Source: Candidatus Woesearchaeota archaeon (GTDB taxonomy: Archaea > Nanobdellota > Nanobdellia > Woesearchaeales > ARS49). From it: a stretch of DNA of 40,196 nt. The notes beneath the pieces were generated by a model. That model saw only the letters and a list, made by a program, of their open reading frames with translations, searched no databases and was not told the origin of the DNA. Where the stretch lies: contig JAWCLR010000001.1 of the NCBI GenBank assembly GCA_038850615.1, positions 93,053 through 133,248 on the forward strand, given 5' to 3'. Made by a program: the position numbers and the translations under genes. Of this stretch, positions 1 through 37,299 are shown piece after piece. Positions within the stretch are counted from its first letter, which is position 1; each line of letters opens with the position of its first letter.

Positions 1-564
1 AATCAAACATTCTTATGAATAGGTTGTATAATGCCTCATTTTTTACAGTGACAAAGCTTCCTGCTGTTACAAACGTTATGAGTGCTGACTGGAACAGCAC
101 CCCGCTCCTATGAGCACGAGATAATAGCAAAACCCCGTATTTGCAATGCTTATTTGCAGTTTTATCATTGCGTAAATTGTCAAAACCAGCCCGAATATTA
201 CTTCAATAAATCCATCCCAGTCAATTCCTGCTGCAGTGATGTAAAGCCAGGAATTGTACGGCTTTAGCAGGTATTTGTCAAAGTCCCCGCGTTCGATTGC
301 CTCTAATGTGACCCAAAAGAAGCCCATGCAGAGCGCGTGGCCTAGCCCGAACACGAGTATGAGCGTTCCTTGAAAGAGAAGGAACTGGTCAAGGGTCCAG
401 CCTGGAATTCCGACTGTTGTGCCATAAATTATCATTGCCATCAATGGCCCAATAAAGTCTCCAAGTGCCATTCCAATTATTGTTATGATGAAGTTTGTCT
501 TGTACGCAAATTCCTTGTTCAGCTGGACCTGCATCATTTTTCCGGCAAGCTTTGGGTATTTCAT
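1..564 (-). CDS. ABC-2 family exporter permease (COG3694-like), runs off the left edge; apparent 1-nt deletion at ~100-103
   Basis: Hydrophobic ORF with IERGDFDKYLLKP motif. ATG 564 overlaps the upstream stop (ATGA). Adding one G to the GGGG run restores ...GAGVLFQSALITFVTAGSF... open to the edge. Confidence 0.8.
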
Positions 565-9509: not shown

Positions 9510-9560
9510 TTTCCCTAAATCTTTTTAAACTGGTGGCTTTTCGTGCTATCCGGGGGATTT

Positions 9561-10523
9561 ATGGCTGAAGAAAGTTCTGTAATCTGGACAGAGAAATATC
9601 GCCCCAAATCATTTGCAGAGGTCAAGGGCCAGGATGCAGTGGTAAGCAAGATAAAGTCCTTTGTTGAGCAGAAGAACATTCCACACTTGCTTTTTGCAGG
9701 ACCGCCGGGAGTTGGAAAGAGCACTTTGGCATTAGTTACTGCAAGGGAATTGTTCGGTGAAAACTGGCGACAGAACTTTCTTGAGCTTAATGCTTCTGAT
9801 GAACGAGGCATTGATGTTGTCAGGGTCAAGGTGAAGGACTTTGCAAGGACAAAGGCAATTGGCAATGTTCCCTTCAAGATCATCTTTCTGGACGAGTAAG
9901 ATGCCTTGACAAAGGAAGCCCAGCAAGCCTTAAGGAGAACGATGGAGAATTATACAAGCACTTGCCGTTTCATCCTTGCAGCAAATTATTCAAGCAAAAT
10001 TATTGATCCAATCCAGAGCCGTTGTGCTGTTTTCCGCTTCAAGCCATTGCCACAGGAGGAGATTTTTTGGATTATTGACAGGATTGCAAAACAGGAGGGG
10101 TTAAAGCTCAGTGCAGAAGCCAAAAAGGCATTGTATGAAGTTTCTGAGGGCGACTGCAGGCGCTTGGAAAACATCCTGCAAAGCTGTGCTGCAATTCAGG
10201 AAACTGTGACTCCTGAGCTTGTGTTTTCAATGGCTTCGATGGCTCAGCCAAAGGAGGTTGCAATGCTCCTAAAAACCGCACTGGATGGCGATTTTGTAAA
10301 GGCAAGGAATGTCTTGCTTGACACTATGCTCAAGTATGGTCTTTCAGGGCTGGACATAATTCGCCAGATTCAGAAAGAGGTCTGGAATCTTGACCTTGGC
10401 AACAGGGAAAAAGTGCGTTTGATTGACAAGTGTGGCGAGATAGAGTTCAGGATGGTAGAAGGTGCTGATGAATTCATTCAGTTGGAAGCCTTGCTTGCTT
10501 ATGTTTCTGCTGTGAAGAATTAA
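9561..10523 (+). CDS. rfcS: Replication factor C small subunit with in-frame TAA at 9897-9899
   Basis: [49 protein letters not shown]; both ORF halves are in one frame. Confidence 0.95.
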
Positions 10524-10880
10524 ATTGGATTCAGAATGTCGTTAATTAAATCGTCAAGTTTTCTTGACGGCTTTTGAGCACCGCAAAGTTTCCTGTTTTG
10601 AGCGTCCCAAATTTTTCGTGCTTTTTCTCTTGCTGAGGTGCCTTATGTTTACTGAAGCGTATTGTTTCAGAAGATGGTTTACGAGGCGGTAAAAATCCTT
10701 TTCATTTTTGGCACGGGCGCTTGAAATGTATTGTAAGTTATGCAGTATGCCTTCTTGCCAATTTCAACAAGCCATTTTTCATATTGGGGTTTGCGCCCAA
10801 TCAAAATGCTTGGGGGTCTGCAATTCTTGTTTTGGCAGTTAGAAAATAATGCTTGTTGTTCGTATTCAGTCAGTTTCTTC
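10520..10880 (-). pseudogene. Probable small (~115 aa) gene broken by at least two frameshifts
   Basis: Three protein-like segments in different frames (KKLTEYEQQALF..., YISSARAKNEKDFYRLVNHLLKQY..., ARKIWDAQNRK...[11 protein letters not shown]). The last stop overlaps the rfcS stop (TTAA). Confidence 0.4.
10552..10575 (+). terminator. Hairpin CGTCAAG-TTTT-CTTGACG followed by a short T run downstream of rfcS
   Basis: Perfect 7-bp inverted repeat between convergent genes. Confidence 0.3.
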
Positions 10881-11810
10881 CCCAGAACTCTTGACTGTCA
10901 ATTCTGTCTGCTTGTATTCTTCGTAGTCGTATATTGCTTCTATGCTTATCTGCTGTTCAAAGTCTGCCCTTGTGGTTATTGTTTGTGTACACGTGATTGT
11001 TTTTTTGCCTTCGTAAAGCGTTGCGAAGCCTTCAGCCTTTGTTCCTGCTGTGGTCAGCCCTGTGCACTGAAGTCCTGGCATTCCGGTGTCAACAATCACG
11101 TAAACCCTGTTTTCCTTTGCCCTTGTGCTTTTGTCGCAGAACGAACCCCGCTCATACATCTGCCCTGCGCCCTTGTTTGAGATTTCAAAGCTGAAGCTTA
11201 TCTTGTCCTTTCCACGTGCAGTTTCCTTTACGTTGCTCACCTGCACGGGTGCTCCTGAGTTCTTGGTTTCCTTGTCTTCATTGATTTCACATATTCCTTC
11301 AGGTTCTGGCGCCAAAAGGTTTTCGCGCACGCAAAGCTTGCTTACTGCCTTTGTAGAATACGTGTAACAGACGTCTGCACGCAACGGAAATGTAACCTGT
11401 GCTCCTGCTATTGGTGAGAAGTGGTTTAGCCCTATGAACTCAACAGTCGCCTGACCGCCCGCAATCACATTTCCTGTAGCGTCCTTCCGCACTGCGTAAA
11501 GCTCTTCTGCCGGGCTATTAATAAGGTCTTCCTCAAGTTTGCCGAATTCCGCGGGATTGATTCCTGAGAGCTTTACGCGCACGCGCTCCGGCTTCACTGT
11601 TGCTTCGCCCTTGTTTTCCAGCTTTATTATTACATCAAAAGGGTCCCTTCCACCGTCAAATACCACGCTGCGGAAATCAATGAATTCCGCAGAGAGCCCT
11701 GCCGTGCCTCCTGCAAATGGTGCACCAAGGTCAATTTTTTCTGCTTTCTTACCCGGCGCGCAGGCAGTAACAAAGGCGATCAGAATAACAACTGCAATTA
11801 TCTTTCGCAT
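10866..11810 (-). CDS. Uncharacterised lipoprotein, paralogue A of a Cys-patterned beta-rich family
   Basis: MRKIIAVVILIAFVTAC lipobox-like signal; motifs ADVCYTY..LCV..IC, SGAPVQV, ISNKGAG, C-terminal IYDY. Confidence 0.85.
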   Translation of the reverse strand: MRKIIAVVILIAFVTACAPGKKAEKIDLGAPFAGGTAGLSAEFIDFRSVVFDGGRDPFDVIIKLENKGEATVKPERVRVKLSGINPAEFGKLEEDLINSPAEELYAVRKDATGNVIAGGQATVEFIGLNHFSPIAGAQVTFPLRADVCYTYSTKAVSKLCVRENLLAPEPEGICEINEDKETKNSGAPVQVSNVKETARGKDKISFSFEISNKGAGQMYERGSFCDKSTRAKENRVYVIVDTGMPGLQCTGLTTAGTKAEGFATLYEGKKTITCTQTITTRADFEQQISIEAIYDYEEYKQTELTVKSSGEETD

Positions 11811-11832
11811 ATATCTTTGCCGAGAATAATTG

Positions 11833-11848
11833 TTATATAAACCTTTCG
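11833..11848 (-). promoter_or_regulatory. BRE+TATA (CGAAAGGTTTATATAA), leaderless promoter of paralogue A
   Basis: Consensus archaeal promoter ~24 nt upstream of ATG 11810. Confidence 0.7.
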
Positions 11849-11853
11849 CCGAC

Positions 11854-12783
11854 TTAAGTGATTGGCAGTATTTCCACATCTTGGAACAATGAGTTCCTGT
11901 AGCCGTACCTAAGCACAATCGTCATCGGGCTTACGTATGCCGCTTCCCCCCTTGGCCTGTCAAACTCGCAATACACAAGCCCGTGGTTGTTTGTCAGCCT
12001 AATGTGACCTCTATCAAGAGGTCTGCAGCTTCCTTTGATGGAGACGCCGCTGACAATCACGTCGGCAAGCTCTACGTAGTCAATCTCATCAAAGTCCAGT
12101 TTGGAGCCGGGTGCGCACTTGTTGAGTGTCTGTCCTCCTGAGCGGAAGACCTCTCCCCCTCCAACGTTCTGAACGTGAATCTTGAATCTTGTCTTGCCAG
12201 GGCTTGCGTCAACCTCAATAAGTGTGACTGCCACTGGCGCTCCCTGGCCTCCCCCAAGTCCAACATTCTGGGGCACGCACACCCGTTGCCTTATTCCCGG
12301 CGCGTAAGGGTCTGGGTCTATGCACACGTTTGCAGAGGCAATAGTCTCATAACCGTAGCATGCCGTTGCCAGCAACCGCACAGGATACCTGTCTCTAAGC
12401 ACCTTTGTCATTCCCCTGAACGTGACGGTGTCAAACCCCCCTTGCGTTATGAACTGGCTTCTGCCCTCAAGAACAGGTATTTGTTCTCCTGCAGGTGATA
12501 TGCCGCTGATTATGCTGGGGTCAAATCCTGAAAGGTATATCCTGTCCCCCGGTCCGCCAATGGTGTATGTGCCGCGGTTCTCAAGCTCAAGCGCAACTGT
12601 TAGCTCTTCACCTGAAAACAAGTGTGGTGGAGGTAGGTTTTGTGCAAACCTCATGTAAAGCCCTTGGCTTCCCTGCCTGAATTCTTGGGCGAATGCTGCA
12701 GATGTTTTTTCCTGTACTGCAGGCGTCTTGCAGCCCGCAAGAACAAGGAATAAGATCATGCCGAAGAGAACTGCCTTTTGCAT
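11854..12783 (-). CDS. Uncharacterised lipoprotein, paralogue B
   Basis: MQKAVLFGMILFLVLAGC lipobox; ATACYGY..VCID..VC, QGAPVAV, VQNVGGG, LRYGY. Start 12783 chosen from TATA spacing (alternative 12792). Confidence 0.85.
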   Translation of the reverse strand: MQKAVLFGMILFLVLAGCKTPAVQEKTSAAFAQEFRQGSQGLYMRFAQNLPPPHLFSGEELTVALELENRGTYTIGGPGDRIYLSGFDPSIISGISPAGEQIPVLEGRSQFITQGGFDTVTFRGMTKVLRDRYPVRLLATACYGYETIASANVCIDPDPYAPGIRQRVCVPQNVGLGGGQGAPVAVTLIEVDASPGKTRFKIHVQNVGGGEVFRSGGQTLNKCAPGSKLDFDEIDYVELADVIVSGVSIKGSCRPLDRGHIRLTNNHGLVYCEFDRPRGEAAYVSPMTIVLRYGYRNSLFQDVEILPIT

Positions 12784-12805
12784 ATGCCTCATCCGTTTTT
12801 TTGAA

Positions 12806-12822
12806 TTATATAAATGTTTGGT
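12806..12822 (-). promoter_or_regulatory. BRE+TATA (CCAAACATTTATATAA), promoter of paralogue B
   Basis: TTTATATA ~24 nt upstream of ATG 12783. Confidence 0.65.
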
Positions 12823-12824
12823 CG

Positions 12825-13745
12825 CTATGGCTTTATTATTTTTGTTTGTGTTCCAATGCTTGAAATGTATCCATATCCGAGTGTTATGGTGAGTGGCGCT
12901 GTGTAACTGCCAAGCCTTGAATCAATGCCTTCAGGGATTGTGCAGACAACCTTTGTTTCACCCTGTTGCTTTATTTTCACTAGTGTGGGCGCGCAGGTGA
13001 GGGGTGTGTCAGAAAGCATTGCCTCGACAGTCACAACATTCCATGCTTCTGGACCCAAGGCCCTGCCTGAACACGCTTCACGATAAAGCTCTTGTGCAAC
13101 AATCTCTCCTCGTCCAAGGTTTTTGATTGTGAGCACGAATTCAGGCCTGACTCTGTTTTCCTGCTTATGCGGAAGCATTTTTGTCTCAACTGTTGCTACT
13201 GCAACAGGCGCACCCTGACCCTGCGGAAATGCCTGCGGTGTAGGAACGCACACTTTTCCTGACGCCTTGCCTGTCAGGTCTGTATCAATACATGCTGTTA
13301 TTAATGCATTTGTCTTGTAGGGATAGCACGCTGTGAATGTAATTGTTGCAGGATAGCCTTGAAGCTGGGGCCCGAGGGGCTTTGTATCAAAATTGAATTT
13401 GAGAAGCCTTTCCTCTCCTTGCGGATTGAATATTGACTTTCCGCGGACATTGAACCTTCCTTGTGCCTGTTGTCTTGGTAGGTAGAGGTATTGTGGTTCA
13501 TAGCTCAGCGCGTAAATTCCTTCCTCAACATCTGTTGTTCCGAGGTTTGCGAGGTTTACGAGGAGCGCAAACTGGTTTCCTTCATATACTTCATGGGGTG
13601 GCGTGTTTTGCGCAAAAAACAATTCAACACCTTGTGTTCCGATGTTTACTTCTGGTATTTGCATTACGTCTTTCCGCTGAAAAAGTCCGTACTGGCATCC
13701 TGAAAGCACAAGTACGAGGGCTGCAAAAACCAGGATTTTTTTCAT
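12825..13745 (-). CDS. Uncharacterised lipoprotein, paralogue C
   Basis: MKKILVFAALVLVLSGC lipobox; FTACYPY..ACID..VC, QGAPVAV, IKNLGRG, LGYGY. Confidence 0.87.
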   Translation of the reverse strand: MKKILVFAALVLVLSGCQYGLFQRKDVMQIPEVNIGTQGVELFFAQNTPPHEVYEGNQFALLVNLANLGTTDVEEGIYALSYEPQYLYLPRQQAQGRFNVRGKSIFNPQGEERLLKFNFDTKPLGPQLQGYPATITFTACYPYKTNALITACIDTDLTGKASGKVCVPTPQAFPQGQGAPVAVATVETKMLPHKQENRVRPEFVLTIKNLGRGEIVAQELYREACSGRALGPEAWNVVTVEAMLSDTPLTCAPTLVKIKQQGETKVVCTIPEGIDSRLGSYTAPLTITLGYGYISSIGTQTKIIKP

Positions 13746-15226
13746 ACCTTCGTCTCCCGCACGTCAGTAATCACTGTGCGCTCAAGCAGGTACTTGTATT
13801 GCGCGCTGACCTTGAAGTTCTGTACCGCGACAGGCGCTTTTCCAAGTACCTGATCAGGGTTCGTGACTTCAAGCGGTATTCTGAAGTTTCTTGTTGCGCC
13901 GGGATATAGAGAATAAACATTCACAAGGCTGTCGTCGCATGCAGGCTGCTCCTCCTTCGGGATTGCTGCGCACGATGTCTGCTTGATGTCAATGCCCTCT
14001 ATTCGCGATATCTTGATTCCTTTTGGCACGAAGAAGTATAGCATTGAGAGTTCCTCAAGCTGGCCGTCCCACAGGTTTTCTACAGTGATCCCCCATGTTT
14101 GGAGCGCTTCCCCTGCCGCACCTATTCCGATTGGTTGTTGCCCAAGACTCATGCCTATGCGCACAGGTCCTGATGTGTATATTGTTACAGGTGTTTTGTC
14201 AGGGATGTTTGCGAGCGGGTCAATATTCTGCTTTCTGTATTCTCTCAGTCTGTCCCTGTCCATTATGTACGCCTTAATGTATGCTCTTGTCGTGAACTCA
14301 AATTCTGCCTTTATCCTGAGCTTATGCAGTCCTTTCTTTAGGACTCCTTTGTTCCAGACGCAGTCAATCTCGTGCTGTTCTGCAGTGATGATGTTGAATG
14401 TATTCTTTGGCCTTAATATGTTTGCAGGGATTGTGCCGTCTGCATCGCAGGCAACAGAAATGTCAAGTGGCTTGTCAAGGGTTTCTGCCTTCAGGGTTGC
14501 GTAAGCGCTAACAGGCGAGTTGTCATAAAAAAATGGTTCTGTCGGCCTGAAGTTTTCTATGTAAACTCCCAGCTGTTTTTTTGCTGCAGAATCAACCTGT
14601 CCTGTGTAATAATCGCCTTTTGCCGCCCTTATTGCTGTTTCGACCTCTGTTGCAACGAATTTTCCTGCTTCCTTTCCTCTTGTGTACATGTTCATTATTG
14701 CCCTTTTTGTCCAGCTTATGATTGCCTCGTAACTAAGCATTGGGTTGAAGCCGAGCTCAATGTTTTGTTCCTTTGCATAATTCACGAGGTTGCCGTATGT
14801 TACTGCCCAGAAGACAAGCCCAAATGTCCAGATTATGAAGTATATTGCGATTGTTTTTGAGGCAACCCCTCTGGTGAGGAAATAAAATATGAACAGCGGA
14901 AAATAAATTACTGCCATGGTTATTGCCTCAAGCACAACAGCTTGCTTCATGTATTTCGCAACAAGCCCGAGAAAGATTGGCACAAGCCACATTGCCAAAA
15001 ACCACAAGGTGAACTTCCAGTCTTTTTCCTTCATTATTCCTTTTGCGACCAGTGCCAAAAACGCGTAAACGCCGAACGTCACTGCCAGTATTGTGTATGA
15101 CACTAGCGCCTGGCGCCTTATGACAAGCAGGTCAAAGACGTGCCAGATTACTAGTAAAAATGCAAGGATAAAGACGCCCCAACCACTTGGTCTGTCTGCA
15201 CCCGGAATGGCTTCCGCCATTGTCAC
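13742..15226 (-). CDS. Membrane protein: ~5 N-terminal TM helices plus a divergent copy of the same extracellular family (paralogue D)
   Basis: Hydrophobic first ~145 aa, then LGVYI, AEFEFTTRAYI, SGPVRI, VENLWDG, AQYKY. Overlaps both neighbours by 4 nt. Start GTG 15226 or ATG 15220. Confidence 0.8.
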   Translation of the reverse strand: MTMAEAIPGADRPSGWGVFILAFLLVIWHVFDLLVIRRQALVSYTILAVTFGVYAFLALVAKGIMKEKDWKFTLWFLAMWLVPIFLGLVAKYMKQAVVLEAITMAVIYFPLFIFYFLTRGVASKTIAIYFIIWTFGLVFWAVTYGNLVNYAKEQNIELGFNPMLSYEAIISWTKRAIMNMYTRGKEAGKFVATEVETAIRAAKGDYYTGQVDSAAKKQLGVYIENFRPTEPFFYDNSPVSAYATLKAETLDKPLDISVACDADGTIPANILRPKNTFNIITAEQHEIDCVWNKGVLKKGLHKLRIKAEFEFTTRAYIKAYIMDRDRLREYRKQNIDPLANIPDKTPVTIYTSGPVRIGMSLGQQPIGIGAAGEALQTWGITVENLWDGQLEELSMLYFFVPKGIKISRIEGIDIKQTSCAAIPKEEQPACDDSLVNVYSLYPGATRNFRIPLEVTNPDQVLGKAPVAVQNFKVSAQYKYLLERTVITDVRETKV

Positions 15227-16392
15227 TCCACCCGCACTGTCAGGCTGATGACATTAAGGTCAGTCAGTGGCATTAGCCCGATGTAATTATTGCCATCCCT
15301 GACAACTGCAGAAATGTCGCGGACATACATAGGGTCGCGCTGGGAGAGCACGTCCAGCCTTCCGTTGACGTTTGTTTCTGCCTCCTTGAGCCTTCCATCA
15401 TCAACAAATTCAATCTCAAGGATTGCGTGTGCTTTTCCCGTGGCAATTGCTGTGAAAATGTCAGGCTCTATGTAGAAAAAGTCAGAGTATCCTTTTGTAG
15501 GCTTTACGAATGTTTTTATTTTTATGTTTTCTATGCGTGCCATTCCCGAACGTAGCCTGAAGCCAATTGTGTTCTTGCCCGATACAAAGTCCTCTTTGAA
15601 CAAATCTTGTCGCGCAGGGCTTTCGCATACAGGCACTGCTGAATAAATCAGCTTGTTGTTGAGCGTTATGTCAAGCACGCCGACGTTGTACTTGTCGCAT
15701 ATTGGGTAGTACTCGAGGTATGCTGACTCAATGTTCTGGTATTCAATGTCAGGGATGCCGAATGAATTTGCAGCAATCTGCTTTTTCACATCAGTTATTT
15801 CGCCAATTATTTTTATGTCAGCGAGCTGATACTGGCGCGAGAATATTAGTCCAAAGCCCCATACTTGGAATTCAACAGCGTTGTTTGCTCGTAGCAGACT
15901 CTTTGGTATTGGCACTGGTGGCGGGTTGTTTACGATTACGTTTCCCTCAAATACTTGTTGGCCGTTGACAAGGATTTTCAGTCTTCCTCTGCGGACTGGC
16001 GCTTGGAAGCTTAGCAAAACATTGTCAACTGTTTCAAGGTCAGGTAAGTAGAAGCTGATGTTTTTGAACCGCTTCCTGAACCAGCCTTTCTTGATCACGA
16101 AAGGGCTTGCTTCCGCAAGGACTTTTGCCTGGCGTTCCTCTGTCAGGAGTAGGTTTGGTATCAGGTGCGCGTATTCTGTCTGTTCCACATAAGTAAGTCT
16201 TCCCGGAGCCGCTTTGAAAATAACTTCGCCGCCTGGCGCAATTACCCTTGGCGGTAAAACACCCTCTTCCTCCATCAAGAGCTCCCTGCGCTCCTCTGGT
16301 GGAAGGAAGATTATGTAAAATATTATCAAGAGGGTTATCAACCCTATAAGTGTCGCAGCTGCGCTGCCTGTTGCCTGACCTCGTTTCTTCAA
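15223..16392 (-). CDS. Class III signal peptide (prepilin-like) beta-rich protein
   Basis: MKKRG/QATGSAAATLIGLITLLIIFYIIFL from TTG 16392 preceded by AGGTGA SD; TATA TTTATATA at ~16431-16438. Confidence 0.8.
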   Translation of the reverse strand: MKKRGQATGSAAATLIGLITLLIIFYIIFLPPEERRELLMEEEGVLPPRVIAPGGEVIFKAAPGRLTYVEQTEYAHLIPNLLLTEERQAKVLAEASPFVIKKGWFRKRFKNISFYLPDLETVDNVLLSFQAPVRRGRLKILVNGQQVFEGNVIVNNPPPVPIPKSLLRANNAVEFQVWGFGLIFSRQYQLADIKIIGEITDVKKQIAANSFGIPDIEYQNIESAYLEYYPICDKYNVGVLDITLNNKLIYSAVPVCESPARQDLFKEDFVSGKNTIGFRLRSGMARIENIKIKTFVKPTKGYSDFFYIEPDIFTAIATGKAHAILEIEFVDDGRLKEAETNVNGRLDVLSQRDPMYVRDISAVVRDGNNYIGLMPLTDLNVISLTVRVE

Positions 16393-16509
16393 AACCGTCA
16401 CCTTCTTTTCGTCCAAAGCGAATTCGTAAATATATAAATGTATTGCCTTGTTTTATCGCAAGCTTTTTAAGCACCCTTCACTACTTATTAGTTAATATTA
16501 GGGGTTTGT

Positions 16510-17022
16510 ATGAAAACGACAACGCTTGGGGCATTCATTGCGGCATTGATTCTTGCTTCATTCAGCGTTTCAGCGCACTTGTATGTTCTAGATTATTATG
16601 ATTATTATGGTAGGCCTTATTATGACGGCTACACAAGCGATTATTTCCGATCAAGCAGTTCTGAAAGTGTGAGCATTCGCGAGTCAGAATACGAGCACTC
16701 GTTGCAGAATTATGGCAGCTGGCGCGGTAGCAGGGTGAGTGACCATTATGATTATGGCCGTTCTCGGGAATTTGCGTTTTCAAGGAGCTCTGAATATGAG
16801 AGTTCAACAAGGACTTACGACGGAGGTTATCCTGTATGGCGTTATTCCTATGGCTACACTGATTATTCTTATCCTTATTATGATGTTGGCACTTATTACG
16901 GGTATGATTACAGGCCGTATAGTGATGATTACGAGTTGAGTTATACAAGCCCGTACTATAATCCTTATAGGTACTCACGGGTGGGTAAGTATGCTTCAAG
17001 GTATCGTCCATATGGGTACTGA
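16510..17022 (+). CDS. Secreted Tyr/Ser/Asp/Arg-rich low-complexity protein
   Basis: Sec signal ending SVSA; about 38 Tyr in 170 aa (hand count). Confidence 0.8.
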   Translation: MKTTTLGAFIAALILASFSVSAHLYVLDYYDYYGRPYYDGYTSDYFRSSSSESVSIRESEYEHSLQNYGSWRGSRVSDHYDYGRSREFAFSRSSEYESSTRTYDGGYPVWRYSYGYTDYSYPYYDVGTYYGYDYRPYSDDYELSYTSPYYNPYRYSRVGKYASRYRPYGY

Positions 17023-17024
17023 TT

Positions 17025-17660
17025 ATGAAAAATCTTTTAGCATTCCTCCTTGTTGCAATTCTTTGCCTTGAATTTGTTTCTGCAAGGATTTTGTATTATG
17101 CTGACGAAGTTGATTACAGAAATAATGTTGCTTATGCACTTCACAACCCTTATGATAATGCTGATCCTGATATTGCTGGCGATTTTGACAGATATGCGTG
17201 CATTTCCCTTGACGACTACAACAAGTTTGCAAACGCGGACAATTATGATTCTTATAAGTCATTGACTGCAAGGACAGCGTCAAGGAATGACCTGAAAAGG
17301 CTTAGAAGGGAAGACCAGCTGAAGATAATCAATGAAGATCCTTATGATGGCCTTGATGAGGCTGACATTGGTGATTACGAAGACTGGAACTGCTACACGC
17401 TGGTATACTATAATTCGCGTGCGAGCCGGAATGCGTATGACAAATGGAGGGTTGTTGACTTCACACACTTTGACGATATTTACGAGGTGCAGAAAATTGG
17501 AAAGTACAGGTACAATAATTTCTACACGCTTCCGGAGGACATTGCAAGATTCGATTTGCAATACACTCGCGCGCCAAAGCCATACTACGAACCGTACGCC
17601 GCAATGCGCACACAATACCCCCTCTATGGTTATGGAATAAGAAGAATTGAGGATTACTGA
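17025..17660 (+). CDS. Secreted Tyr/Asp-rich protein with an internal duplicated motif
   Basis: Signal peptide ending FVSA; NPYDNAD...GDFDRYACISLDDYN...NYD versus DPYDGLD...GDYEDWNCYTLVYYN...AYD. Confidence 0.8.
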   Translation: MKNLLAFLLVAILCLEFVSARILYYADEVDYRNNVAYALHNPYDNADPDIAGDFDRYACISLDDYNKFANADNYDSYKSLTARTASRNDLKRLRREDQLKIINEDPYDGLDEADIGDYEDWNCYTLVYYNSRASRNAYDKWRVVDFTHFDDIYEVQKIGKYRYNNFYTLPEDIARFDLQYTRAPKPYYEPYAAMRTQYPLYGYGIRRIEDY

Positions 17661-17700
17661 TGCTCTACTTTTTTAAATGCCGGTTTGTTCTTGTGCGTTT

Positions 17701-18744
17701 ATGAAACAGCTGGTATTCAAGCTCAAGCAGGGCGAGGCAAAAGTGCTGGTTGAGAATCCAGACGACTTGTGGTTTCTCAACAACATCATTGACAAGGGTG
17801 ACATCATCAAGGGAAAGACCCTCCGCAAGATGAAAGTTACAGAAGAAGCGTCTGCTGAGCGCAAAAGAGTTTTCCTTTCTATTCAGGTTGAAAAAGTCGA
17901 GTACGCTGCCACCGAGCTCCGAGTTTCCGGTAAAGTCACAGAAGGTCCTGAAGATGTTCCGCACGGTAGCTACCACACGTTCTCGATAGAGGTTGGAAGC
18001 ACAATCACGATAATAAAGCCAGAATGGCTGCGCTACCAGCTTGACTACCTAAAAGAAGCCACGACAGCCAAAGCGCCAAAGATTGTTGTTTGCGTTTTTG
18101 ATCGCGAAGAGGCGTTGTTTGCAAAGCTCACAAGGGACGGATACGAGATGCTGACGACAATAAAGGGCAGGGTTGCAAAAAAAGCAGTTCCTGAAAAGGT
18201 CAAGGAAACCTTTTATGGGAGCATAATCGACCAGCTTGAGCAGTACGATAAAAGGTTTGGTCTTGACAAGATAATCCTTGCAAGCCCTTCATTCTGGAAG
18301 GAGGAGCTTTACAAGGTGTTAAGGAACCAGGAGTTGAAGAAAAAAATAATACAGGCAACCTGCTCTGGCGTTGACGAGACAGCAATAGCAGAGGTCCTGA
18401 AGCGCAAGGAGACGCAGGAAGTGCTGAGGCAGGAGCGTGTTAGCAGGGAAATGGCCGTCATTGAGGATTTGTTCAGCAAAATCGCAAAGCAAGGTCCAGC
18501 CACTTACGGCATGAAGGAAACAGCCCTGGCGGCAGAGGCAGGCGCAATAGAACACCTCCTTGTTACAGACAGACTCATTCAGAAGCTCAGGGAGGAGAAC
18601 AAGTTTGCAGAGCTTGATGGCATGATGAAGCAGGTTGATCGCACAAAAGGAAGGGTCTGGATTATTTCAACAGAGCATGAGGGAGGAAAGCGCCTGCAGG
18701 GGCTTGGCGGTATCGGAGCAATATTGAGATACAAAATGTTCTAG
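17701..18744 (+). CDS. pelA: Pelota (ribosome rescue factor)
   Basis: ENPDDLWFL, GKTLRK, LRVSG..GSYHT, EHEGGKRLQGLGGIGAILRY. Confidence 0.95.
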   Translation: MKQLVFKLKQGEAKVLVENPDDLWFLNNIIDKGDIIKGKTLRKMKVTEEASAERKRVFLSIQVEKVEYAATELRVSGKVTEGPEDVPHGSYHTFSIEVGSTITIIKPEWLRYQLDYLKEATTAKAPKIVVCVFDREEALFAKLTRDGYEMLTTIKGRVAKKAVPEKVKETFYGSIIDQLEQYDKRFGLDKIILASPSFWKEELYKVLRNQELKKKIIQATCSGVDETAIAEVLKRKETQEVLRQERVSREMAVIEDLFSKIAKQGPATYGMKETALAAEAGAIEHLLVTDRLIQKLREENKFAELDGMMKQVDRTKGRVWIISTEHEGGKRLQGLGGIGAILRYKMF

Positions 18745-29238: not shown

Positions 29239-30399
29239 ATGAAAACAAAACTGGCTTTGCTGATCGTTGCAGCGGCATTTTTGCCCGCAGTCCTTGCCGA
29301 CATTGGCGCAGACTGGCAGAAGGTCTCAGTAAGCTTTTCTTGGGACTTATCAATGGGCGGGCCCTGTGCCAACGAAACACAGTGCCTCCTGCACGTTCTT
29401 GGAAATGAAAGCTATGACGGCGATATTTCGCGGTGGTTTACAATTGACAATGAAAGGCTTTGGCCAAGGTGTGTTAACAATACCCAAAGCATTCTTGACT
29501 ATGTTTGTGAGAACGGAAACTGGACAACCCGCACAAAGCGGCTTGCATTCCAGCTCGCGCAGGAAACATCTCCGGATAACTACACTTTATTCTGCGATTC
29601 GTACGCGAGCGTGCTTAACAAGTATGATTACTTGGTGAAAAATGTCCTTGTAGAGGAATATCTTGGCAACACATGCAATATGGCTGGAAAGCAAGTGCCT
29701 TGCATTAACAGCATTTGCGTCCTCAAAACGCCCGCGACAATTGCTGTTGGCACAACCCTTAACGTGCCTGTCAACCACACCACGCGCTCATTCCTACTTG
29801 CACTTAACAAGAATTCAGACCTGTGTAGAAATGTCAATCCCGCAGCAACCGGCTTCGTCTCATGCGGCTCTGATGTCTGGTACAGTCCGTCGCTTAATGC
29901 GGTCGTTTACCTTCCAAATGGTTACCTTTCATTGCCGACAGCAGGCATTTCTGAAAAAATCTCAGGTCCTATGAACAATATGAGCTATTACGTAATGCAG
30001 ATACTGCATAAGCCTGGAAATCCTGGAATGAACTTTCTTTATTTCCCAAGGACGCGCCTCTTTAATCATATTTATTTTGCGCAGAACGGCAATAGGGCCG
30101 TGTTCGGCTTCCTTGAAAAAAACCTGAAGCCGGAATACACGATTCTGCCTTACAACGAATCAAGCCCCGTGCCAATTGACTACATCGGTGTGAGGTATTC
30201 AAACATCAACCTGGGCAAAGACCCTTGCCTTAACCTTGTCAAGGTGTATGACACGCGGGCATTCTGCGAAAACCAGACGGGCAGCGGCTTCAACATCATT
30301 GCAAGGCACAGGTGCGAGCCGGGATACGAGGGCGACTGCCTGGAAGCAAGCCCTATTGTTAAAGCATGGCCTGCCCTGACAGGAAAATTGAGACCATGA
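29239..30399 (+). CDS. Secreted Cys-containing hypothetical protein
   Basis: Signal peptide ending VLA; GGGGAG SD; DYVCENGNWTTRTK. Confidence 0.85.
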   Translation: MKTKLALLIVAAAFLPAVLADIGADWQKVSVSFSWDLSMGGPCANETQCLLHVLGNESYDGDISRWFTIDNERLWPRCVNNTQSILDYVCENGNWTTRTKRLAFQLAQETSPDNYTLFCDSYASVLNKYDYLVKNVLVEEYLGNTCNMAGKQVPCINSICVLKTPATIAVGTTLNVPVNHTTRSFLLALNKNSDLCRNVNPAATGFVSCGSDVWYSPSLNAVVYLPNGYLSLPTAGISEKISGPMNNMSYYVMQILHKPGNPGMNFLYFPRTRLFNHIYFAQNGNRAVFGFLEKNLKPEYTILPYNESSPVPIDYIGVRYSNINLGKDPCLNLVKVYDTRAFCENQTGSGFNIIARHRCEPGYEGDCLEASPIVKAWPALTGKLRP

Positions 30400-31697
30400 A
30401 AAAAGCACAACTTACGCTTACGATAATAATGGGCGTCATCCTACTGTTAGCCGCAGTAACGGTGATATGGCTTGGCACCCAGACTGCAACACTGCAGACA
30501 GAACCAGAGGCAGGAGAGCAAAGGCTAAGGCAGGTTGCTGTGCAGCCAGTAAGGGAATACATCCAGTCCTGCCTTGACATAACCACAATGGCAGGTCTTG
30601 AGCTTCTTGGAAAGCAGGGAGGGGTTTTGTACAAGATGCAGGGTGGCCTTACTCCTGATGTCCAGCCCATGGAGGAAGGCTCAAGGTATGTGGAATACGA
30701 AGGAATAAACGTGAGCTACGTTATTACTAGGCCCGTCCAGGACATTGGCACGCTTTATTACGCAGAGCCTGACGAGTATCCTTTCCCCTCATTCCCTTAT
30801 GTGTTCAACCAGACAACAGGGTCTGTCATAAAGGAGTTTTACGGCGGATACTATGGCAAATCGCTTCTTCCGCCATTGTTCAAGCCGGGTAAAGACTCAA
30901 TCCAGGAACAACTCGAATCGTATATTCGCTTTAATCTGCCAAAATGCACTGACTGGAAAACTTTTGCAGCGCAGGGGCTTTCAATCACTGCAGGCAGGCC
31001 AGATGTCAGCGTAATGATTGCAGAAAACATCACACAGATTGAAGCAGAGCAGTTCCTCACCGTGCTTGTCAAATGGCAAGTGAACATCACAGACCTTACT
31101 ACAAACAGAAACACAACCCTTGACCAGTTTTCGCTTAGTTACCCTGTCCACCTCGCAAAATTTTATCTTTTCGTGCAAGGCATTGTGCTTGGCGAAATCA
31201 GTGATGCAACCTTTGACCCTCGTAATGTCAGCACAACCGCAACGCCTGTGACTATCATAAAAAATGTTTACAAAAACAGCTTTGACCAAGGCACTGATGA
31301 CATAATTCTTGTCAGAGATGAGGAGTCAAGGTTGCGAGGCAAGCCCTTGGAATTCTGGATACTTAGGGCAAACAGGTATCCTGCTCTTGTGTGGATTAAC
31401 CAGACAGAACTTGATAGGCATGAATTCTATTCGCTTGGCACTTGCAAGCAGAAGCCTTCCATATTTCTGGCAGGCGATTTGCTTGAAATAAAATTCCCTG
31501 ATATATGGACTGCAAGGCTTAGGGCTGTTGATCCGGACGAGGACATTGTCGCTTTCAGGACAGAGCCTGCCTCTCCAGGACAGATCACCATGCCGCCGCC
31601 AGGAGAACCTTTCAGGATGCGTGTTTACGCTTCAGACGGTGGCAAGACAGAGGACTATCAGGTTTTGAAGCTCCGCGTTACGGGGTGTCCAGACTGA
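30396..31697 (+). CDS. Large class III signal peptide (pilin-like) protein with C-terminal cadherin/Ig-like motif
   Basis: MKKA/QLTLTIIMGVILLLA; YIQSCL...GKQGG; NRYP..., AVDPDED, ASDG. Confidence 0.85.
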   Translation: MKKAQLTLTIIMGVILLLAAVTVIWLGTQTATLQTEPEAGEQRLRQVAVQPVREYIQSCLDITTMAGLELLGKQGGVLYKMQGGLTPDVQPMEEGSRYVEYEGINVSYVITRPVQDIGTLYYAEPDEYPFPSFPYVFNQTTGSVIKEFYGGYYGKSLLPPLFKPGKDSIQEQLESYIRFNLPKCTDWKTFAAQGLSITAGRPDVSVMIAENITQIEAEQFLTVLVKWQVNITDLTTNRNTTLDQFSLSYPVHLAKFYLFVQGIVLGEISDATFDPRNVSTTATPVTIIKNVYKNSFDQGTDDIILVRDEESRLRGKPLEFWILRANRYPALVWINQTELDRHEFYSLGTCKQKPSIFLAGDLLEIKFPDIWTARLRAVDPDEDIVAFRTEPASPGQITMPPPGEPFRMRVYASDGGKTEDYQVLKLRVTGCPD

Positions 31698-34600
31698 TGA
31701 AAAAAATTTTATTTATTGCGGCGCTGATTGCGTTGTTGTACCCAGTGGCATTCGTGGCTGCTCAGCCAGGGTGCTGTTGCGACCCGATTGTTTTCAATGG
31801 CTCGCTTGTTTTTGACCGCGCTGACTGTGACGAGACATACTGGAAATTCACTTCTGAGCTTCCTGTTCTTGGAGAAAAATGTGATGATGTATGCGAGGCG
31901 GTATTCGCCCCTCCGATTTTCATTCCACAACCTGTCAGTTGCAACTCGCCTGATTACAAGCCAGCGCCACAAAATCTTGCGGTCCTTCCCGTCAAGGGCA
32001 AAAAGCATCTTAGAATAACATACTCGCTGCCCTGCCCTGCAGAAACATATTACGTGAACATTTCGCGGTGCAAGGGCGATGATTGCGACGATTTTACCCA
32101 TATCGCGCAGGCCACGCCTTCAGGATTTTACACAGACATTTCACCCGATCTTGAATGGAATAGCGACTACACTTACAAGCTAGTCTCGGCGTCAAGGGTT
32201 TCAGGAGCTTCAGAACCCGCTATTGCATCAGGCAGGCTTAATGACATTGAATGCTGGCACAAGGGGTATGAGCAGTTCTGCATTGGCGATTACTATTATG
32301 ACCTCTTTGAGCAATACCTGAAAACATACGGCTATGCAGGCATTACTCCTGCTGCTTTTGACGCTGATTTTTCCTCAGCAGTAATTGCGGCATTCCACGA
32401 AAAGTTCAATAGGGGGTGGGCGTGCGATGAGGCAAACACGCTTTACCAGAAGGCTCCCGCTGTCAATTGCAAGGCAGGCGAGCAGTGTGTTCTTGACGAG
32501 GATGGTATAATGTGCATAAGCCAAACCGCATGTGATAGGGGTGGGATGTTCGGTATTTATTCAACGCTTGAAAGCTGTGAGGGAAACGGAGAAAAATACT
32601 GCTTTTATGACCGCTCGCACAGCTCGATTGACGAATGCTATGCGTGCAACCCGAGAATGGCGTGCGCTGATTACAGGACAAAGGGCGCTTGCGAGAGGGA
32701 CAACTGCCATGCCGGAGTTTGCGAATGGCACGATGTGATTCCAAGCATTGGAATAGGTGTGTGCGTTGACAAAAGGTTTGCAAACTGTGCATGGTGCAAG
32801 GCAAAAGGCACACCAGGGTTCGAGAACAATGACGCTTATAATGATGTGTTTGACCAGTGCACTGCTGAAAAGTCAAAAGCACTGGCTGTTCCTGAATTTT
32901 TATGCATTTATGACAAGAACGCGCAGGAAAGCAACTCGTGCGATGCCGCAGCATGTATGGATTACAATGAAACCCAATGCGGCTCTCCTGCAGGCGGAAT
33001 CAAGCTCAATCCTGACAACTCAATTGCAGTGCCAAGCACAGACCCGTGCAACATAAAGGTCTGCCAGAACATTGCCGGAGCAGGATGCGTGAAAAACCAC
33101 GACGCAAACAGCATTCCTGACTGCGCATTAAAGGTGGCTGCTCCTGAAAGAAGGCAGTGCGAGCTTGATTATTTCCCGCCAAACACAACCCTGGTGCCGA
33201 CAACATTCCGGCCTAACAGAATTGACTGGCTTGCAGTCAAGATGCTTGACAGGCTGAATGCAACCGATGATGGTACGTTTATGGAAGGCAAACCTGGCTA
33301 CCGCCTGCGCGTGTGTGTTGTCGGAAGGGAAAACCCCTGCGCAAGCCCTTCTGATTTTGCCTCAACAAATTATTCAATGCTTAACTTCAATGACGTTTAT
33401 TTGCAAGGTGGTAGAGAAGTCCTTGCAACGATGAGGGTTGGAGAGAACACTTTGCGGTATTATGGTGTTGACCGCGCAAACAACCCTGAGATTATCAAGG
33501 AGATGGCGGTAGTTGCGTGCGACAAATGTCAAGGTCCGAAAGTGCTTGAAGTGACGGTTTCGCCAGGCAAACTTGTTAATGGCAAGTATTACACAACTGC
33601 AGACACCCCAATAATCACTGTGTCGTTCAACGAGCCCGCAACCCTGACTTCTGCAGCACTCTTGCTTGGCAATAAGGTCATGCCGGTTACTGCAAGCCCG
33701 TCAAGTGGCGCTAATTATGAGTACACATTCATCCCGCTCAGGCCGTTGCTTGACGGCGAATACACATTCACCTTCAACGCCAAGGACAACAATGGCATCT
33801 TTATGGATGATACAGGCAGCGTTTCAGTAATTGTCGACACCACCCCTGGCGACATAACAATCATTCCTGAAGACGGCGCAGTCATTGGCGTTGGTTCTGT
33901 TGACATCACAATCCGGTTCAATGAGCCATTAACCCTTCTCGCGGCAACACTCGAGAACGAAGTATGGGCATCAAAATATGCGGCAAAAAAAGTCACGACG
34001 AATTTGATGCCCCTTCTTGCAGCATCCGACGACGGCATGACTTACAGTGCGACTGTTGCGGGGCTTTCAGGCGGGAAGAAGAACATCAAGGTCCGGGCAG
34101 AGGACCTTGCCGGCAATCCTGCAATTGGCAGGTCAAGCTTCTGGGTTGACCTAGGACCAATGATGATGCGGCTCAAAGAACCAAGTTGGGGGGTCAGCGC
34201 CTCGTACGTGTTTGACATCGTTGTTGAGACCTCGCGCACAGCGGTGTGCAAGTATTCCTATGACTTGCCAGCGCCTCCTTCAGAGACCGCATTTGAGGAA
34301 TTCCTGTGGTCATTCCCAGAGGAAACCGCAGTAACACACAAAATCCCTGATTTTGACAGAATTGCAATCGGCGACCTGAAGACGCACAAGCTTTACGTCT
34401 ACTGCAAAGCAGGAAGCGATATCACAATGGAATCGTTTGAGCTGCGCGTTGACCCGACTCCTCCTGTAATCAAGTCTGCATATGCCTATCCTGACGTTAT
34501 CATAGAGCGACGCTTGCCAGGACAGGATATTTTCACTACGTCACTCAAAGTGCAGACAGACGATGATGGGTTCTGTAAGTATAGCACAGAGAACGTTCCT

Positions 34601-36775
34601 TTTGTGCTAATGGATGGAGTCTTCCCTGGCTTTGATGAAATCCCAAAGAAGTCGCATAATGCTGAAATCAACGTGACACAGGACGCAACAGAATACACGT
34701 ACTATGTTGCATGCAAGAACATTGCCGAAATGCCCTCGGCAACCGTCCCTGTAAGGTTCAGCGTTGACCTCAGCGTGCCTTTTGCTGCAACAAGCAACAC
34801 TCCGCCTTACTCAAACACCACTGAATTTGTGCTGCGCGTTGAGACAAACAAGCGTTCATTCTGCTACGTGAGCGAGACGATTGATGCAGAGCCTGTCCTG
34901 ATGGGTGGGTTCGGCTATGCCCATACTGCACCTGCAAATGTAACCGGTCCTGGCAAGTACAAGTGGTTTGTGAAGTGCAGCACGGGTGCGGGCAATGAGA
35001 TTGCAACCCTTGAGATTCCTGTTGTTGTTGACACGACCCCGCCTGAAATGTTGTTTGTTGATGACAGCTCAAACCTGCCAAATGAGCCGGAGTTCTCTTA
35101 TTTCCCTGACCAGCTCCGGCTTAATTTTCTTGGCGAGGACAACGAAACAAACATAAGCGCGTACTATTACAGATTGCTTACGTACCACGCCAACACTACA
35201 GTGCTCAACTGGACATTGAGCACAAACCTCAATGCGACCCCGTTCTATGTCACAGGGCTTAGCTTGGTGGATGGCAACAAGTACCGGTTTGAGGTCTATC
35301 CTGTTAACATTGTCGGTTTGCATGGCAACGCAATGGCAAGCAATGGAGTCACAATTGACTTTGAAAAGGCGCCGGCAATTTGCGAAAACGGCGTCAAAGA
35401 CGCCAATGAGACAGACATTGACTGCGGAGGCCAGTGCCCTGGTTGTATTGACGGCGCAGCATGCAGTGCAAACACGGACTGCCAGTCTGGATACTGCAAC
35501 AATGGGATATGTGCCCTTGCTGCCTGCGATGACGGCGTCAAGAATGCAAACGAAACAGACATTGACTGCGGCGGAGGGGTTTGTTTGCCTTGCGGAATGA
35601 ACAAGACTTGCATCCAAAATTCTGATTGCGCAAGCGGCAGTTGCAATTTTGGGTTGTGCACTAATCCTGACCCATGCGCTGATGGAATCCTTTCAGGCAC
35701 AGAGAGTGATGTTGACTGCGGAGGCTCGTGTCCGACAAAGTGCGGAGATGGCAAAAACTGCCTGTCCACGCTTGACTGCTCTGTTGGCCTTATGTGCATT
35801 GAGAGCACCTGCCAGCCCGAGCGCGACTCTGACAAGGACCTCGTGCCTGATGACAGGGACAAGTGCCCGAACACCCCGCAAGATGAGGTTACTGACGAGA
35901 ACGGCTGCTCACCTTCCCAAAGGTTCAGCTGCGGCGACGAGATTTCTGACGGCTGGCGCATAAGGCACTTTGGCAGCGTGCTGTGCATAGACAACGGCGC
36001 CCCTCACGCAGATCCTGACAAGGATCTGCTTACAAACCTTGAGGAATACCGGTATGGTACAAGTCCGACAAATTCCGATACGGATTATGACACGTGGAAT
36101 GACAAAATTGAGATTGAAAAGGGCACAAACCCCCTTGACGCATCATCGCACCCGCCAAGCAAGCTTAGGATGCTGCTCTGGGTGCTCCTCGTGCTCCTTA
36201 TCATTGGTGCAATAGGAATTGGTGGCTACATCGGCTACAAGTATTATCTTGAAATACGCACACACGCAGCGCCGCCACCACTTCCCACCAAGCCTTTGCC
36301 CAAGGCGCCCGTGAAAAAAATAAAGCCAGTGCCCCCTGTGATTGACAAGTTGCGTAGGATTGCCCGCAAGGAAGAGCCTGGTGTGACAGACCGCGAATGG
36401 GTTTCAATGGCCGAGCTTGCAGAGCGGCTCAAAAAGGAAAAAGTGCCTATGCCAGAGGACGTCTTTGACAGGCTTAAGGACTTACTAAGCGGCAGGATTC
36501 CAAGGAGAGAAGCCCCCAGCGTTCTTGCTGCAATACAAAAAGAGCCAGAGGCATTCAGGCTTTTGAGGAGAATTTCGTTTGAAAGGCTTACCCCTGCAGA
36601 AAAAGCGCTTGTCAAAAAGCGTCTCGCATTCCTGAAGGCAGGCAAAATTACCCCTGCAGAACTTGAAGAAATTCTTGCAAAGCTGCGCATCACTGCAGCG
36701 TATTACAAGACACACAAAAAGGAGCTTGAACGCGAACTCGCAGAATGGCTCAATGAAAGGAGGAAGAAAAAATGA
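31697..36775 (+). CDS. Giant (1692 aa) single-pass Cys-rich surface protein / adhesin
   Basis: Signal peptide; Cys-rich head; several Ig/FN3-like modules joined by VDxTPP; three C..G.....E(T/S)D(I/V)DCGG.C repeats; TSP3-like Asp-rich repeats; TM at ~36166-36245; Pro-rich then basic helical tail. Confidence 0.9.
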   Translation: MKKILFIAALIALLYPVAFVAAQPGCCCDPIVFNGSLVFDRADCDETYWKFTSELPVLGEKCDDVCEAVFAPPIFIPQPVSCNSPDYKPAPQNLAVLPVKGKKHLRITYSLPCPAETYYVNISRCKGDDCDDFTHIAQATPSGFYTDISPDLEWNSDYTYKLVSASRVSGASEPAIASGRLNDIECWHKGYEQFCIGDYYYDLFEQYLKTYGYAGITPAAFDADFSSAVIAAFHEKFNRGWACDEANTLYQKAPAVNCKAGEQCVLDEDGIMCISQTACDRGGMFGIYSTLESCEGNGEKYCFYDRSHSSIDECYACNPRMACADYRTKGACERDNCHAGVCEWHDVIPSIGIGVCVDKRFANCAWCKAKGTPGFENNDAYNDVFDQCTAEKSKALAVPEFLCIYDKNAQESNSCDAAACMDYNETQCGSPAGGIKLNPDNSIAVPSTDPCNIKVCQNIAGAGCVKNHDANSIPDCALKVAAPERRQCELDYFPPNTTLVPTTFRPNRIDWLAVKMLDRLNATDDGTFMEGKPGYRLRVCVVGRENPCASPSDFASTNYSMLNFNDVYLQGGREVLATMRVGENTLRYYGVDRANNPEIIKEMAVVACDKCQGPKVLEVTVSPGKLVNGKYYTTADTPIITVSFNEPATLTSAALLLGNKVMPVTASPSSGANYEYTFIPLRPLLDGEYTFTFNAKDNNGIFMDDTGSVSVIVDTTPGDITIIPEDGAVIGVGSVDITIRFNEPLTLLAATLENEVWASKYAAKKVTTNLMPLLAASDDGMTYSATVAGLSGGKKNIKVRAEDLAGNPAIGRSSFWVDLGPMMMRLKEPSWGVSASYVFDIVVETSRTAVCKYSYDLPAPPSETAFEEFLWSFPEETAVTHKIPDFDRIAIGDLKTHKLYVYCKAGSDITMESFELRVDPTPPVIKSAYAYPDVIIERRLPGQDIFTTSLKVQTDDDGFCKYSTENVPFVLMDGVFPGFDEIPKKSHNAEINVTQDATEYTYYVACKNIAEMPSATVPVRFSVDLSVPFAATSNTPPYSNTTEFVLRVETNKRSFCYVSETIDAEPVLMGGFGYAHTAPANVTGPGKYKWFVKCSTGAGNEIATLEIPVVVDTTPPEMLFVDDSSNLPNEPEFSYFPDQLRLNFLGEDNETNISAYYYRLLTYHANTTVLNWTLSTNLNATPFYVTGLSLVDGNKYRFEVYPVNIVGLHGNAMASNGVTIDFEKAPAICENGVKDANETDIDCGGQCPGCIDGAACSANTDCQSGYCNNGICALAACDDGVKNANETDIDCGGGVCLPCGMNKTCIQNSDCASGSCNFGLCTNPDPCADGILSGTESDVDCGGSCPTKCGDGKNCLSTLDCSVGLMCIESTCQPERDSDKDLVPDDRDKCPNTPQDEVTDENGCSPSQRFSCGDEISDGWRIRHFGSVLCIDNGAPHADPDKDLLTNLEEYRYGTSPTNSDTDYDTWNDKIEIEKGTNPLDASSHPPSKLRMLLWVLLVLLIIGAIGIGGYIGYKYYLEIRTHAAPPPLPTKPLPKAPVKKIKPVPPVIDKLRRIARKEEPGVTDREWVSMAELAERLKKEKVPMPEDVFDRLKDLLSGRIPRREAPSVLAAIQKEPEAFRLLRRISFERLTPAEKALVKKRLAFLKAGKITPAELEEILAKLRITAAYYKTHKKELERELAEWLNERRKKK
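35381..35815 (+). repeat. Three tandem Cys-rich coding repeats (units start 35381, 35525, 35675)
   Basis: ACAGACATTGACTGCGG identical in units 1 and 2; spacing 144 and 150 nt. Confidence 0.85.
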
Positions 36776-37299
36776 ATGGACGTGCACAGGTAATCGGCCA
36801 AGTTTTCGTGTTCATAATAGCAGCTATCGTTTTTGTCCTCATTCTCGGATACGGCTACAAGGCAATAGTGAACTTTATGGAGCGCGGCGAAGAGGTCCAG
36901 ATGATTGACTTCAAGAACGAGCTCAGCTCTGCAATAACAATAATCAAGCGCGATTATGGTAGCGTCCAACGCGTTGACCTGCGAGTCCCTTCAAGAACTG
37001 AAGAGGTGTGCTTTGTCACAACAGACCCTGCAGACGTGCGCGCGCCGGGGTGGGAGGAAGAACTGAAAAAAGACAGGCCGCTTATTTATTCCGCATGGGT
37101 TACAGGAAAAGAGAACGTGTTTCTTATTCCAAAACAACCCGCGCCTCTGCGCATTGACGACCTTGTTGTTGAGCCGGAAACAACAGGATATTTATGCATG
37201 CCTGTCGTGAACAACAAAGTCAGCATTCGTGTTGAAGGCACGGGAAACAGGGCAAAAATAGGCAGGTGGCCTCAGGCAAATGAGCAAACAGGGAATTGA
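36772..37299 (+). CDS. Class III signal peptide (pilin-like) protein
   Basis: MNGRA/QVIGQVFVFIIAAIVFVLILGYGY; two Cys in the C-domain. Confidence 0.85.
   Translation: MNGRAQVIGQVFVFIIAAIVFVLILGYGYKAIVNFMERGEEVQMIDFKNELSSAITIIKRDYGSVQRVDLRVPSRTEEVCFVTTDPADVRAPGWEEELKKDRPLIYSAWVTGKENVFLIPKQPAPLRIDDLVVEPETTGYLCMPVVNNKVSIRVEGTGNRAKIGRWPQANEQTGN

Follow-up and report, generated by a model that had tools for sequence, protein, structure and literature searches.

A conserved five-gene module of Woesearchaeales and related orders, predicted to lie at the cell surface, with a possible role in contact with partner cells

Few uncultivated archaea are as widespread as Woesearchaeales and their relatives. 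Murein transglycosylases have been reported in Pacearchaeota and Woesearchaeota, with speculation about bacterial partners, in three papers (PMC8204110, PMC11537232, PMC12352652). In particular, Castelle et al. 2021 (PMC8204110) describe a large protein, membrane-bound or secreted and of an otherwise unknown family, that has an extracellular SLT domain, and propose attachment to bacterial walls; the same source assembles 51 lineage-specific families, mostly of unknown function, as 'Module 98'. Here we describe five minus-strand genes, ordered E-D-C-B-A, on a 40,196-nt stretch of DNA from a Candidatus Woesearchaeota archaeon (GenBank assembly GCA_038850615.1, contig JAWCLR010000001.1, positions 93,053 to 133,248; hereafter the window). 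They encode a protein with a class III (prepilin-type) signal (E), a membrane protein (D) and three paralogous putative lipoproteins (C, B and A), and relatives of D tie the module physically to murein hydrolase domains that were earlier noted only as isolated 'large SLT proteins'.

The SLT proteins of Castelle et al. come from the same lineages, and SLT is likewise present in 29 of the 52 relatives of D that we scanned. They differ in that the five-gene module, the lipoprotein paralogues and the class III-signal partner are not described in the available text, and in that the D studied here has no SLT domain. D may belong to their family fam00969, at which the common SLT domain and lineage no more than hint. 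We found no description of the five-gene module in the literature; its families may already lie within Module 98 and be listed in the family tables of PMC8204110.

Other likenesses concern single proteins. Macroglobulin (MG) and CARDB domains resemble the fold modelled for C, but a six-cysteine pattern and two long strands (residues 130-153 and 281-304) are peculiar to the A/B/C family. Type V pili of Bacteroidota (FimA/Mfa) are built from lipoprotein-precursor subunits with two beta-sandwich halves, and A, B and C are also predicted to be lipoprotein precursors with two such halves; however, there is no sequence match or specific fold match, FimA/Mfa is absent among the matches listed, the modelled C monomer is complete in itself, and the partners here are a polytopic membrane protein and a protein with a class III signal, in a cell with no outer membrane. 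BcsB, the periplasmic subunit of bacterial cellulose synthase, resembles the jelly rolls modelled for E; it differs in its domain arrangement (root-mean-square deviation 17.9), in the position of its anchor at the opposite end, and in lacking sequence similarity, and there is no synthase partner here. Finally, the bindosome of Sulfolobales (PMC13705601) also combines a non-filament protein bearing a prepilin-type signal with a ligand-binding ectodomain. E differs in that its jelly rolls resemble carbohydrate-binding modules (CBMs) rather than a solute-binding fold, and neither Bas-type assembly genes nor an ABC transporter lie near the module.

Lipoproteins, membrane partner and lectin-like protein

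A (10866-11810, minus strand, 314 aa), B (11854-12792, minus, 312 aa) and C (12825-13745, minus, 306 aa) are true paralogues: by BLASTP, C matches B at 29% identity (E value 7e-28) and A at 22% (E value 9e-7). The original prediction, made from the letters of the window, had drawn an ordered motif chain through the three proteins, and this agrees with the columns that are invariant in a three-way alignment and in 121 homologues—N67, G69, C140, Y141, Y143, T145, C152, C166, G178-A-P-V181, N209, G211, G213, C251, C268, Y291 and Y293. Of the cysteines, C140, C152, C166, C251 and C268 are present in all homologues and C225 in 99%; these six would fit three extracellular disulfides. A profile of the family, run over the 914-kb, 99.4%-complete genome, finds these three genes only. 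Internal duplication within A/B/C is not significant (hhalign E value 0.075).

Each protein begins with a lipobox conforming to the pattern [LVI][ASTVI][GAS]C (VTAC in A, LAGC in B, LSGC in C). The lipobox-like starts had been noticed beforehand, and their cysteine proves to be conserved in 121/121 homologues. The Pfam model LPAM_1 matches C (E value 6.8e-5) and 18 of the 121 family members, while among the syntenic open reading frames (ORFs) of the family the lipobox is found in 56 of 57, the last (A of locus L008) showing a loose pattern only. Lipidation of this kind, with thioether-linked archaeol, is AliA-dependent in Haloferax according to a preprint (10.64898/2026.03.08.710431). A, B and C are predicted to be lipid-anchored.

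A model of C built from the 121-sequence alignment (predicted local distance difference test, pLDDT, 92.3; predicted TM score, pTM, 0.82) is all-beta and forms a complete monomer, with long strands at residues 130-153 and 281-304; the latter, C-terminal strand is paired within the sandwich. The model makes C a rigid two-part beta-sandwich protein of MG/CARDB-like character. Foldseek matches are tandem Ig-like proteins with low TM scores, the best being MG/CARDB domains and not pilins; one pilin fusion, CfaB, is among the matches listed (E value 1.2e-4, TMq 0.21). Outside the protein's own family, ESM Atlas returns CARDB proteins at TM scores of 0.31-0.37. By sequence, A/B/C fall below the gathering score of CARDB (PF07705), which matches one of the 121 members (E value 0.0093). 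Matches in BFVD are likewise generic (best E value 2.3e-5, TMq 0.12), so that there is no sign of a viral origin for C. Overall, the fold matches are those of a generic beta-sandwich and carry no functional assignment.

D (13742-15226, minus) is a 494-aa protein if translation starts at GTG; it may alternatively start at the ATG at 15220 (492 aa). Five hydrophobic segments, all N-terminal of residue 205, are followed by a conserved GDYYTGxVD motif and a Cys-containing ectodomain of about 295 aa. The original prediction had read D as a divergent copy of A/B/C behind roughly five transmembrane helices; the segments are there, and the status of copy is probable rather than proven. BLASTP finds no matches between D and A/B/C, and the A/B/C hidden Markov model (HMM) does not match any D directly. 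By profile-profile alignment, the ectodomain aligns with A/B/C over 164-165 collinear columns (hhalign E values 0.012-0.015, score 27.2), pairing A.F.F.T.AY with ACY.Y.T.A, GPV.IGM with GAPV.V, N.W.G with N.G.G, and Y.Y with Y.Y. All 81 controls score below 27.2: 40 column shuffles (mean 15.4, maximum 21.7), 40 block shuffles (mean 19.0, maximum 23.8) and the reversed profile (14.8). The gap is bridged by two lipoproteins that other orders encode—one that adjoins D (L037:5869-7026) is recognised by both the A/B/C HMM (E value 1.9e-6) and the D-ectodomain HMM (2.1e-6), and another (L036:9814-10671) by the D-ectodomain HMM (2.9e-7). Because the alignment beats its controls and these bridging proteins exist, we consider the ectodomain of D to be probably a distant homologue of A/B/C.

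E (15223-16392, minus) has 389 residues when read from the TTG at 16392. It opens with MKKRGQ followed by ATGSAAATLIGLITLLIIFYIIFL—a short charged N-region, a [KR][GA] cleavage motif and a hydrophobic helix. This class III signal, already recognised in the original prediction as KRG/Q, recurs among the homologues, with [KR][GA]Q standing directly ahead of the hydrophobic core in 74 of 92. The genome encodes the corresponding signal peptidase, Peptidase_A24 (G000:C25, 63 bits). Among ten other-order loci, four have the Peptidase_A24 gene 1-2.3 kb from E; there is none near the module in 20 loci of the same order or in 5 split-cluster loci (described below). The four other-order genes, near Pelota and E, are L031:1159-2022, L032:2143-2991, L038:9497-10321 and L039:11445-12329 (E values 4e-10 to 2e-15).

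A model of E from a 92-sequence alignment (pLDDT 91.7, pTM 0.68) has helices at 17-37 and 40-51 and then beta structure, with jelly rolls that resemble the PNGase F N-domain, BcsB and CBMs. The protein consists of the signal and its helix, the short second helix and three CBM-like or galactose-binding-like jelly-roll modules. Residues 95-205 and 206-312 are internal repeats (hhalign probability 97%, E value 6.5e-11); the third module is more weakly similar (E values 0.011-0.058). The aligned ranges are nested (61..397, 79..306, 94..207), so the three modules may be inserted into one another. CBM_35 and BetaGal_ABD2 match weakly, in single E orthologues. By hhalign, E shows no relation to A/B/C (E value 0.26), nor do its repeats to the two halves of A/B/C (E values of at least 0.13).

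The original prediction could assign the set to no characterised family, and the searches leave it so: Pfam and NCBIfam return lipobox matches only for the five proteins, and searches of A/B/C, E and D against PDB sequence profiles return nothing below an E value of 0.018.

Conservation and fusions to murein hydrolases

Woesearchaeales and related orders have inherited the module vertically, as an ancient core. The A/B/C profile is found in 344 of the 401 genomes sampled from the phylum (338/395 without six that are flagged unpublished), almost always in three copies per genome in the same order and mostly in one or two in the other orders of the class. In the class sample, 74 of 121 genomes have E, among them all 14 of its own order, and it is mostly single-copy—62 of the 74 genomes have one match, and some of the doubles are two pieces of one gene. 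Names on the homologues are 'Candidatus Woesearchaeota', 'Nanoarchaeota' and, once, 'Aenigmarchaeota'. Five linked families kept by almost all of Woesearchaeales and relatives, with no characterised homologue, are thereby defined.

For the order, we compared twenty loci of 20 kb, each from a different genome. The arrangement Pelota / E-D-C-B-A / RFC is colinear in 12, one of which has a 2.3-kb insert between C and B; the five genes, grouped by the original prediction, are thus conserved and inherited together. One further locus is rearranged with all five genes, six have only B-A beside RFC, and one has E, C, B and A with an unassigned 2.2-kb interval in the position of D. The spacer between D and C is -4 nt in 6 of 13 loci and ranges from -19 to +12. 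Five of the six genomes with B-A only were followed along the contig, and in all five it carries E and a C-type gene at a distance of 22-40 kb, the two separated by a 2-3 kb interval. The gene in this interval matches the local D HMMs weakly in three of the five genomes, and a D profile search of the same genomes finds no match. These split clusters (L009-L012 and L019, paired with L026-L030, in genomes G110, G197, G160, G120 and G072) come from two families of the order, and B-A stays at RFC in each. This separation of E...C from B-A suggests two sub-units.

In other orders, eight of ten loci chosen by an E match have E, a membrane protein in the position of D and two or three lipobox proteins; the membrane protein matches the D HMM in five of those eight, and Pelota adjoins E in four of the ten. 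In a quick tree of 74 sequences (SH-aLRT support only, midpoint root), A groups with all six last-position lipoproteins of other orders and with two first-position ones (support 98), and B and C are sisters (support 92). From this grouping, the ancestral module was probably E-D-lipoprotein-A, with C and B arising from a later duplication.

A homologue search with D gave 38 close relatives, none with a Pfam domain. A D profile reached much further—1531 representatives at E values of 1e-3 or below among 1.84 billion proteins, the best 150 spanning 361-1470 aa. From those 150 we scanned 52 with Pfam, picked for length, leaving out the other 98. Murein hydrolase domains are present in 36 of the 52 and always stand C-terminal to the ectodomain; besides SLT there are Amidase_2 in two, Amidase_3 in one (together with SLT), NlpC/P60 in three and Peptidase_M23 in four (two with SLT). 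PKD and DUF4112 each occur in one, and 14 have no domain. Among syntenic D orthologues, 2 of 14 have a C-terminal SLT domain (best E value 3.1e-17). Mur_ligase_M has no match in the genome studied here, so that a peptidoglycan target would be foreign.

A contact platform or a structural scaffold

All five products are predicted to be tethered on the outer face of the membrane, a placement that follows from the lipobox, the class III signal, the conserved cysteines and the extracellular hydrolase domains on relatives of D. Our best reading, to which we tentatively grant a little less than an even chance, is an extracytoplasmic platform through which the cell touches the wall of its partner. In this scheme E would be exported through its class III signal, held by its hydrophobic N-terminal helix, and would expose three lectin-like (CBM-type) jelly rolls, which fit the recognition of glycan and might bind it. 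D would be anchored through several membrane helices and expose an ectodomain of the A/B/C family, and A, B and C would stand beside it as lipid-anchored, disulfide-stabilised, rigid two-part beta-sandwich proteins, the domains of all four serving as a scaffold. Together, the five would form one surface platform engaging the partner's wall; in many lineages a murein hydrolase at the distal end of D would open bacterial peptidoglycan locally. The fusion of four hydrolase families to the outer end of D, in the absence of murein synthesis, points to an outward role against bacterial walls. We regard as rather unlikely the fuller claim that the module is the core of an undescribed contact machine of Woesearchaeales and Pacearchaeales, in which D and three lipoproteins form the platform, E is a prepilin-processed lectin-like arm that docks on bacterial walls, and hydrolases are delivered in many lineages; if it were true, a large part of these DPANN archaea would live on bacteria rather than archaea.

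Several observations weigh against a contact platform. The D of this genome has no hydrolase domain, and SLT is not found in the 99.4%-complete genome, so that the conserved core works without hydrolase and, here, would act as adhesin and scaffold only. The count of 36 in 52 is not a family-wide frequency, since the relatives were picked for length. The profile score behind the homology between D and A/B/C is modest, folds of the CBM-like and Ig-like kinds belong to generic modules of extracellular proteins, and a structural envelope role would be just as consistent with near-universal, mostly single-copy, syntenic inheritance beside housekeeping genes. The idea of host contact, voiced in the original prediction, gains indirect support from the hydrolases on long relatives of D; the D of the window itself has none.

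The main rival is a housekeeping scaffold: the set would construct or order a surface layer or pseudo-periplasm belonging to the cell itself, and the fusions on D would be secondary. Near-universality, a stable position by housekeeping genes and presence here without any hydrolase all speak for it, and it would be the first candidate envelope scaffold for the order. Typical S-layer proteins are, however, fast-evolving, and these proteins are small (ectodomains of about 290 aa) and well conserved; four murein hydrolase families have been fused to D repeatedly and independently, which points to a foreign wall, and the A/B/C family is not found in 57 of the 401 genomes sampled. We consider this scaffold possible, if on the doubtful side. 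The hydrolase domains could also be taken as a sign of an autolysin complex that remodels a murein-like wall of the cell's own, which is scarcely credible where neither Mur_ligase_M nor SLT is found in a genome of this completeness.

The remaining rivals start from E or from the lipoproteins. E could be a large minor pilin or tip adhesin of a type IV filament, with D and A-C as assembly or anchoring partners: the class III motif is conserved in 74/92 homologues, Peptidase_A24 is adjacent in 4 of 10 other-order loci, and the genome has a T2SSE-type ATPase next to a protein with eight transmembrane (TM) segments, along with many small pilin-like ORFs. Against this, ATPase and platform genes are absent in or beside the module in all 35 loci read, T2SSF has no match in the genome, the T2SSE ATPase lies elsewhere (contig C5), and Peptidase_A24 is away from the module in the same-order and split-cluster loci; we judge a filament accessory set improbable. 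An uptake aid, in which E captures glycans or wall fragments for import as in the Sulfolobus bindosome and A-D form the surrounding structure, would explain the union of a class III signal with CBM-like domains, and binding proteins with such signals are widespread in archaea according to PMC13705601; yet the module has no transporter genes and E has a jelly-roll, CBM-like rather than a periplasmic-binding-protein fold, which leaves this reading quite improbable. Last, the original prediction had likened A-C to type V pili, whose subunits are joined into a polymer through donated terminal strands. The comparison is invited by precursors of lipoprotein type that have two beta-rich halves and a C-terminal strand kept across the family, and by the CfaB fusion among the Foldseek matches listed, but C is confidently modelled (pLDDT 92.3) as a complete monomer with strand 281-304 already paired in its own sandwich, and its best structural matches are MG/CARDB domains, not pilins. 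The analogy gains no support, and strand exchange appears very unlikely.

Gene boundaries and neighbouring sequence

The five minus-strand ORFs are present at the coordinates first given for them, as are the 4-nt overlaps of E with D and of D with C, the former provided that D starts at its GTG. The start of E at 16392, proposed at the outset, is likely because a GGTGA shortly precedes the TTG and a TATA-like box, ATTTATATA, read from the sequence at approximately 16428-16436 (minus), lies upstream; the longest ORF reaches 16416. This box is likely the promoter of an E-D-C(-B-A) unit. For A, the longest ORF is 10866-11918, and the start adopted is the Met ahead of the signal peptide. The window gave no matches in Rfam and tRNA scans, and scans for bacterial-type promoters and terminators did no better than on shuffled sequence.

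The module is flanked by plus-strand genes for the RFC small subunit (9543-10523) and Pelota (17677-18744). As a check on the DNA, one hot-spring study provides contigs of three DNA runs, which have at least 99% identity in 33 of 41 pieces of the region. All three runs have C instead of A at window position 13853, which changes Asp458 of D to Glu. The RFC small-subunit gene, the genome's only one, has an in-frame TAA at 9897-9899 within its Walker B motif (FLDE*DALT), where three relatives have a Cys codon (TGC or TGT); the contigs of all three runs read G and C at 9898-9899, that is, TGC. Either an assembly error or a rare variant probably accounts for the stop.

Divergent from E, two plus-strand ORFs (16510-17022 and 17025-17660) encode secreted proteins with signal peptides, the first Tyr-rich. 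They have matches in the same-genus locus L004 only and therefore stand outside the conserved module. Beyond the window, contigs C3, C5 and C10 hold at least seven small ORFs with a pilin-like N-terminus, G(K/R)GVA(L/Y)AILGIVA..., four of them consecutive on C10, and on C5 the T2SSE ATPase (757 aa) adjoins the 8-TM protein (737 aa). Within the window, a second putative surface cluster on the plus strand comprises 30366-31697, 31685-36775 and 36772-37299, in which ORFs with class III-type signals (MKKAQLTL... and MNGRAQVIG...) stand on both sides of a 1696-aa ORF.

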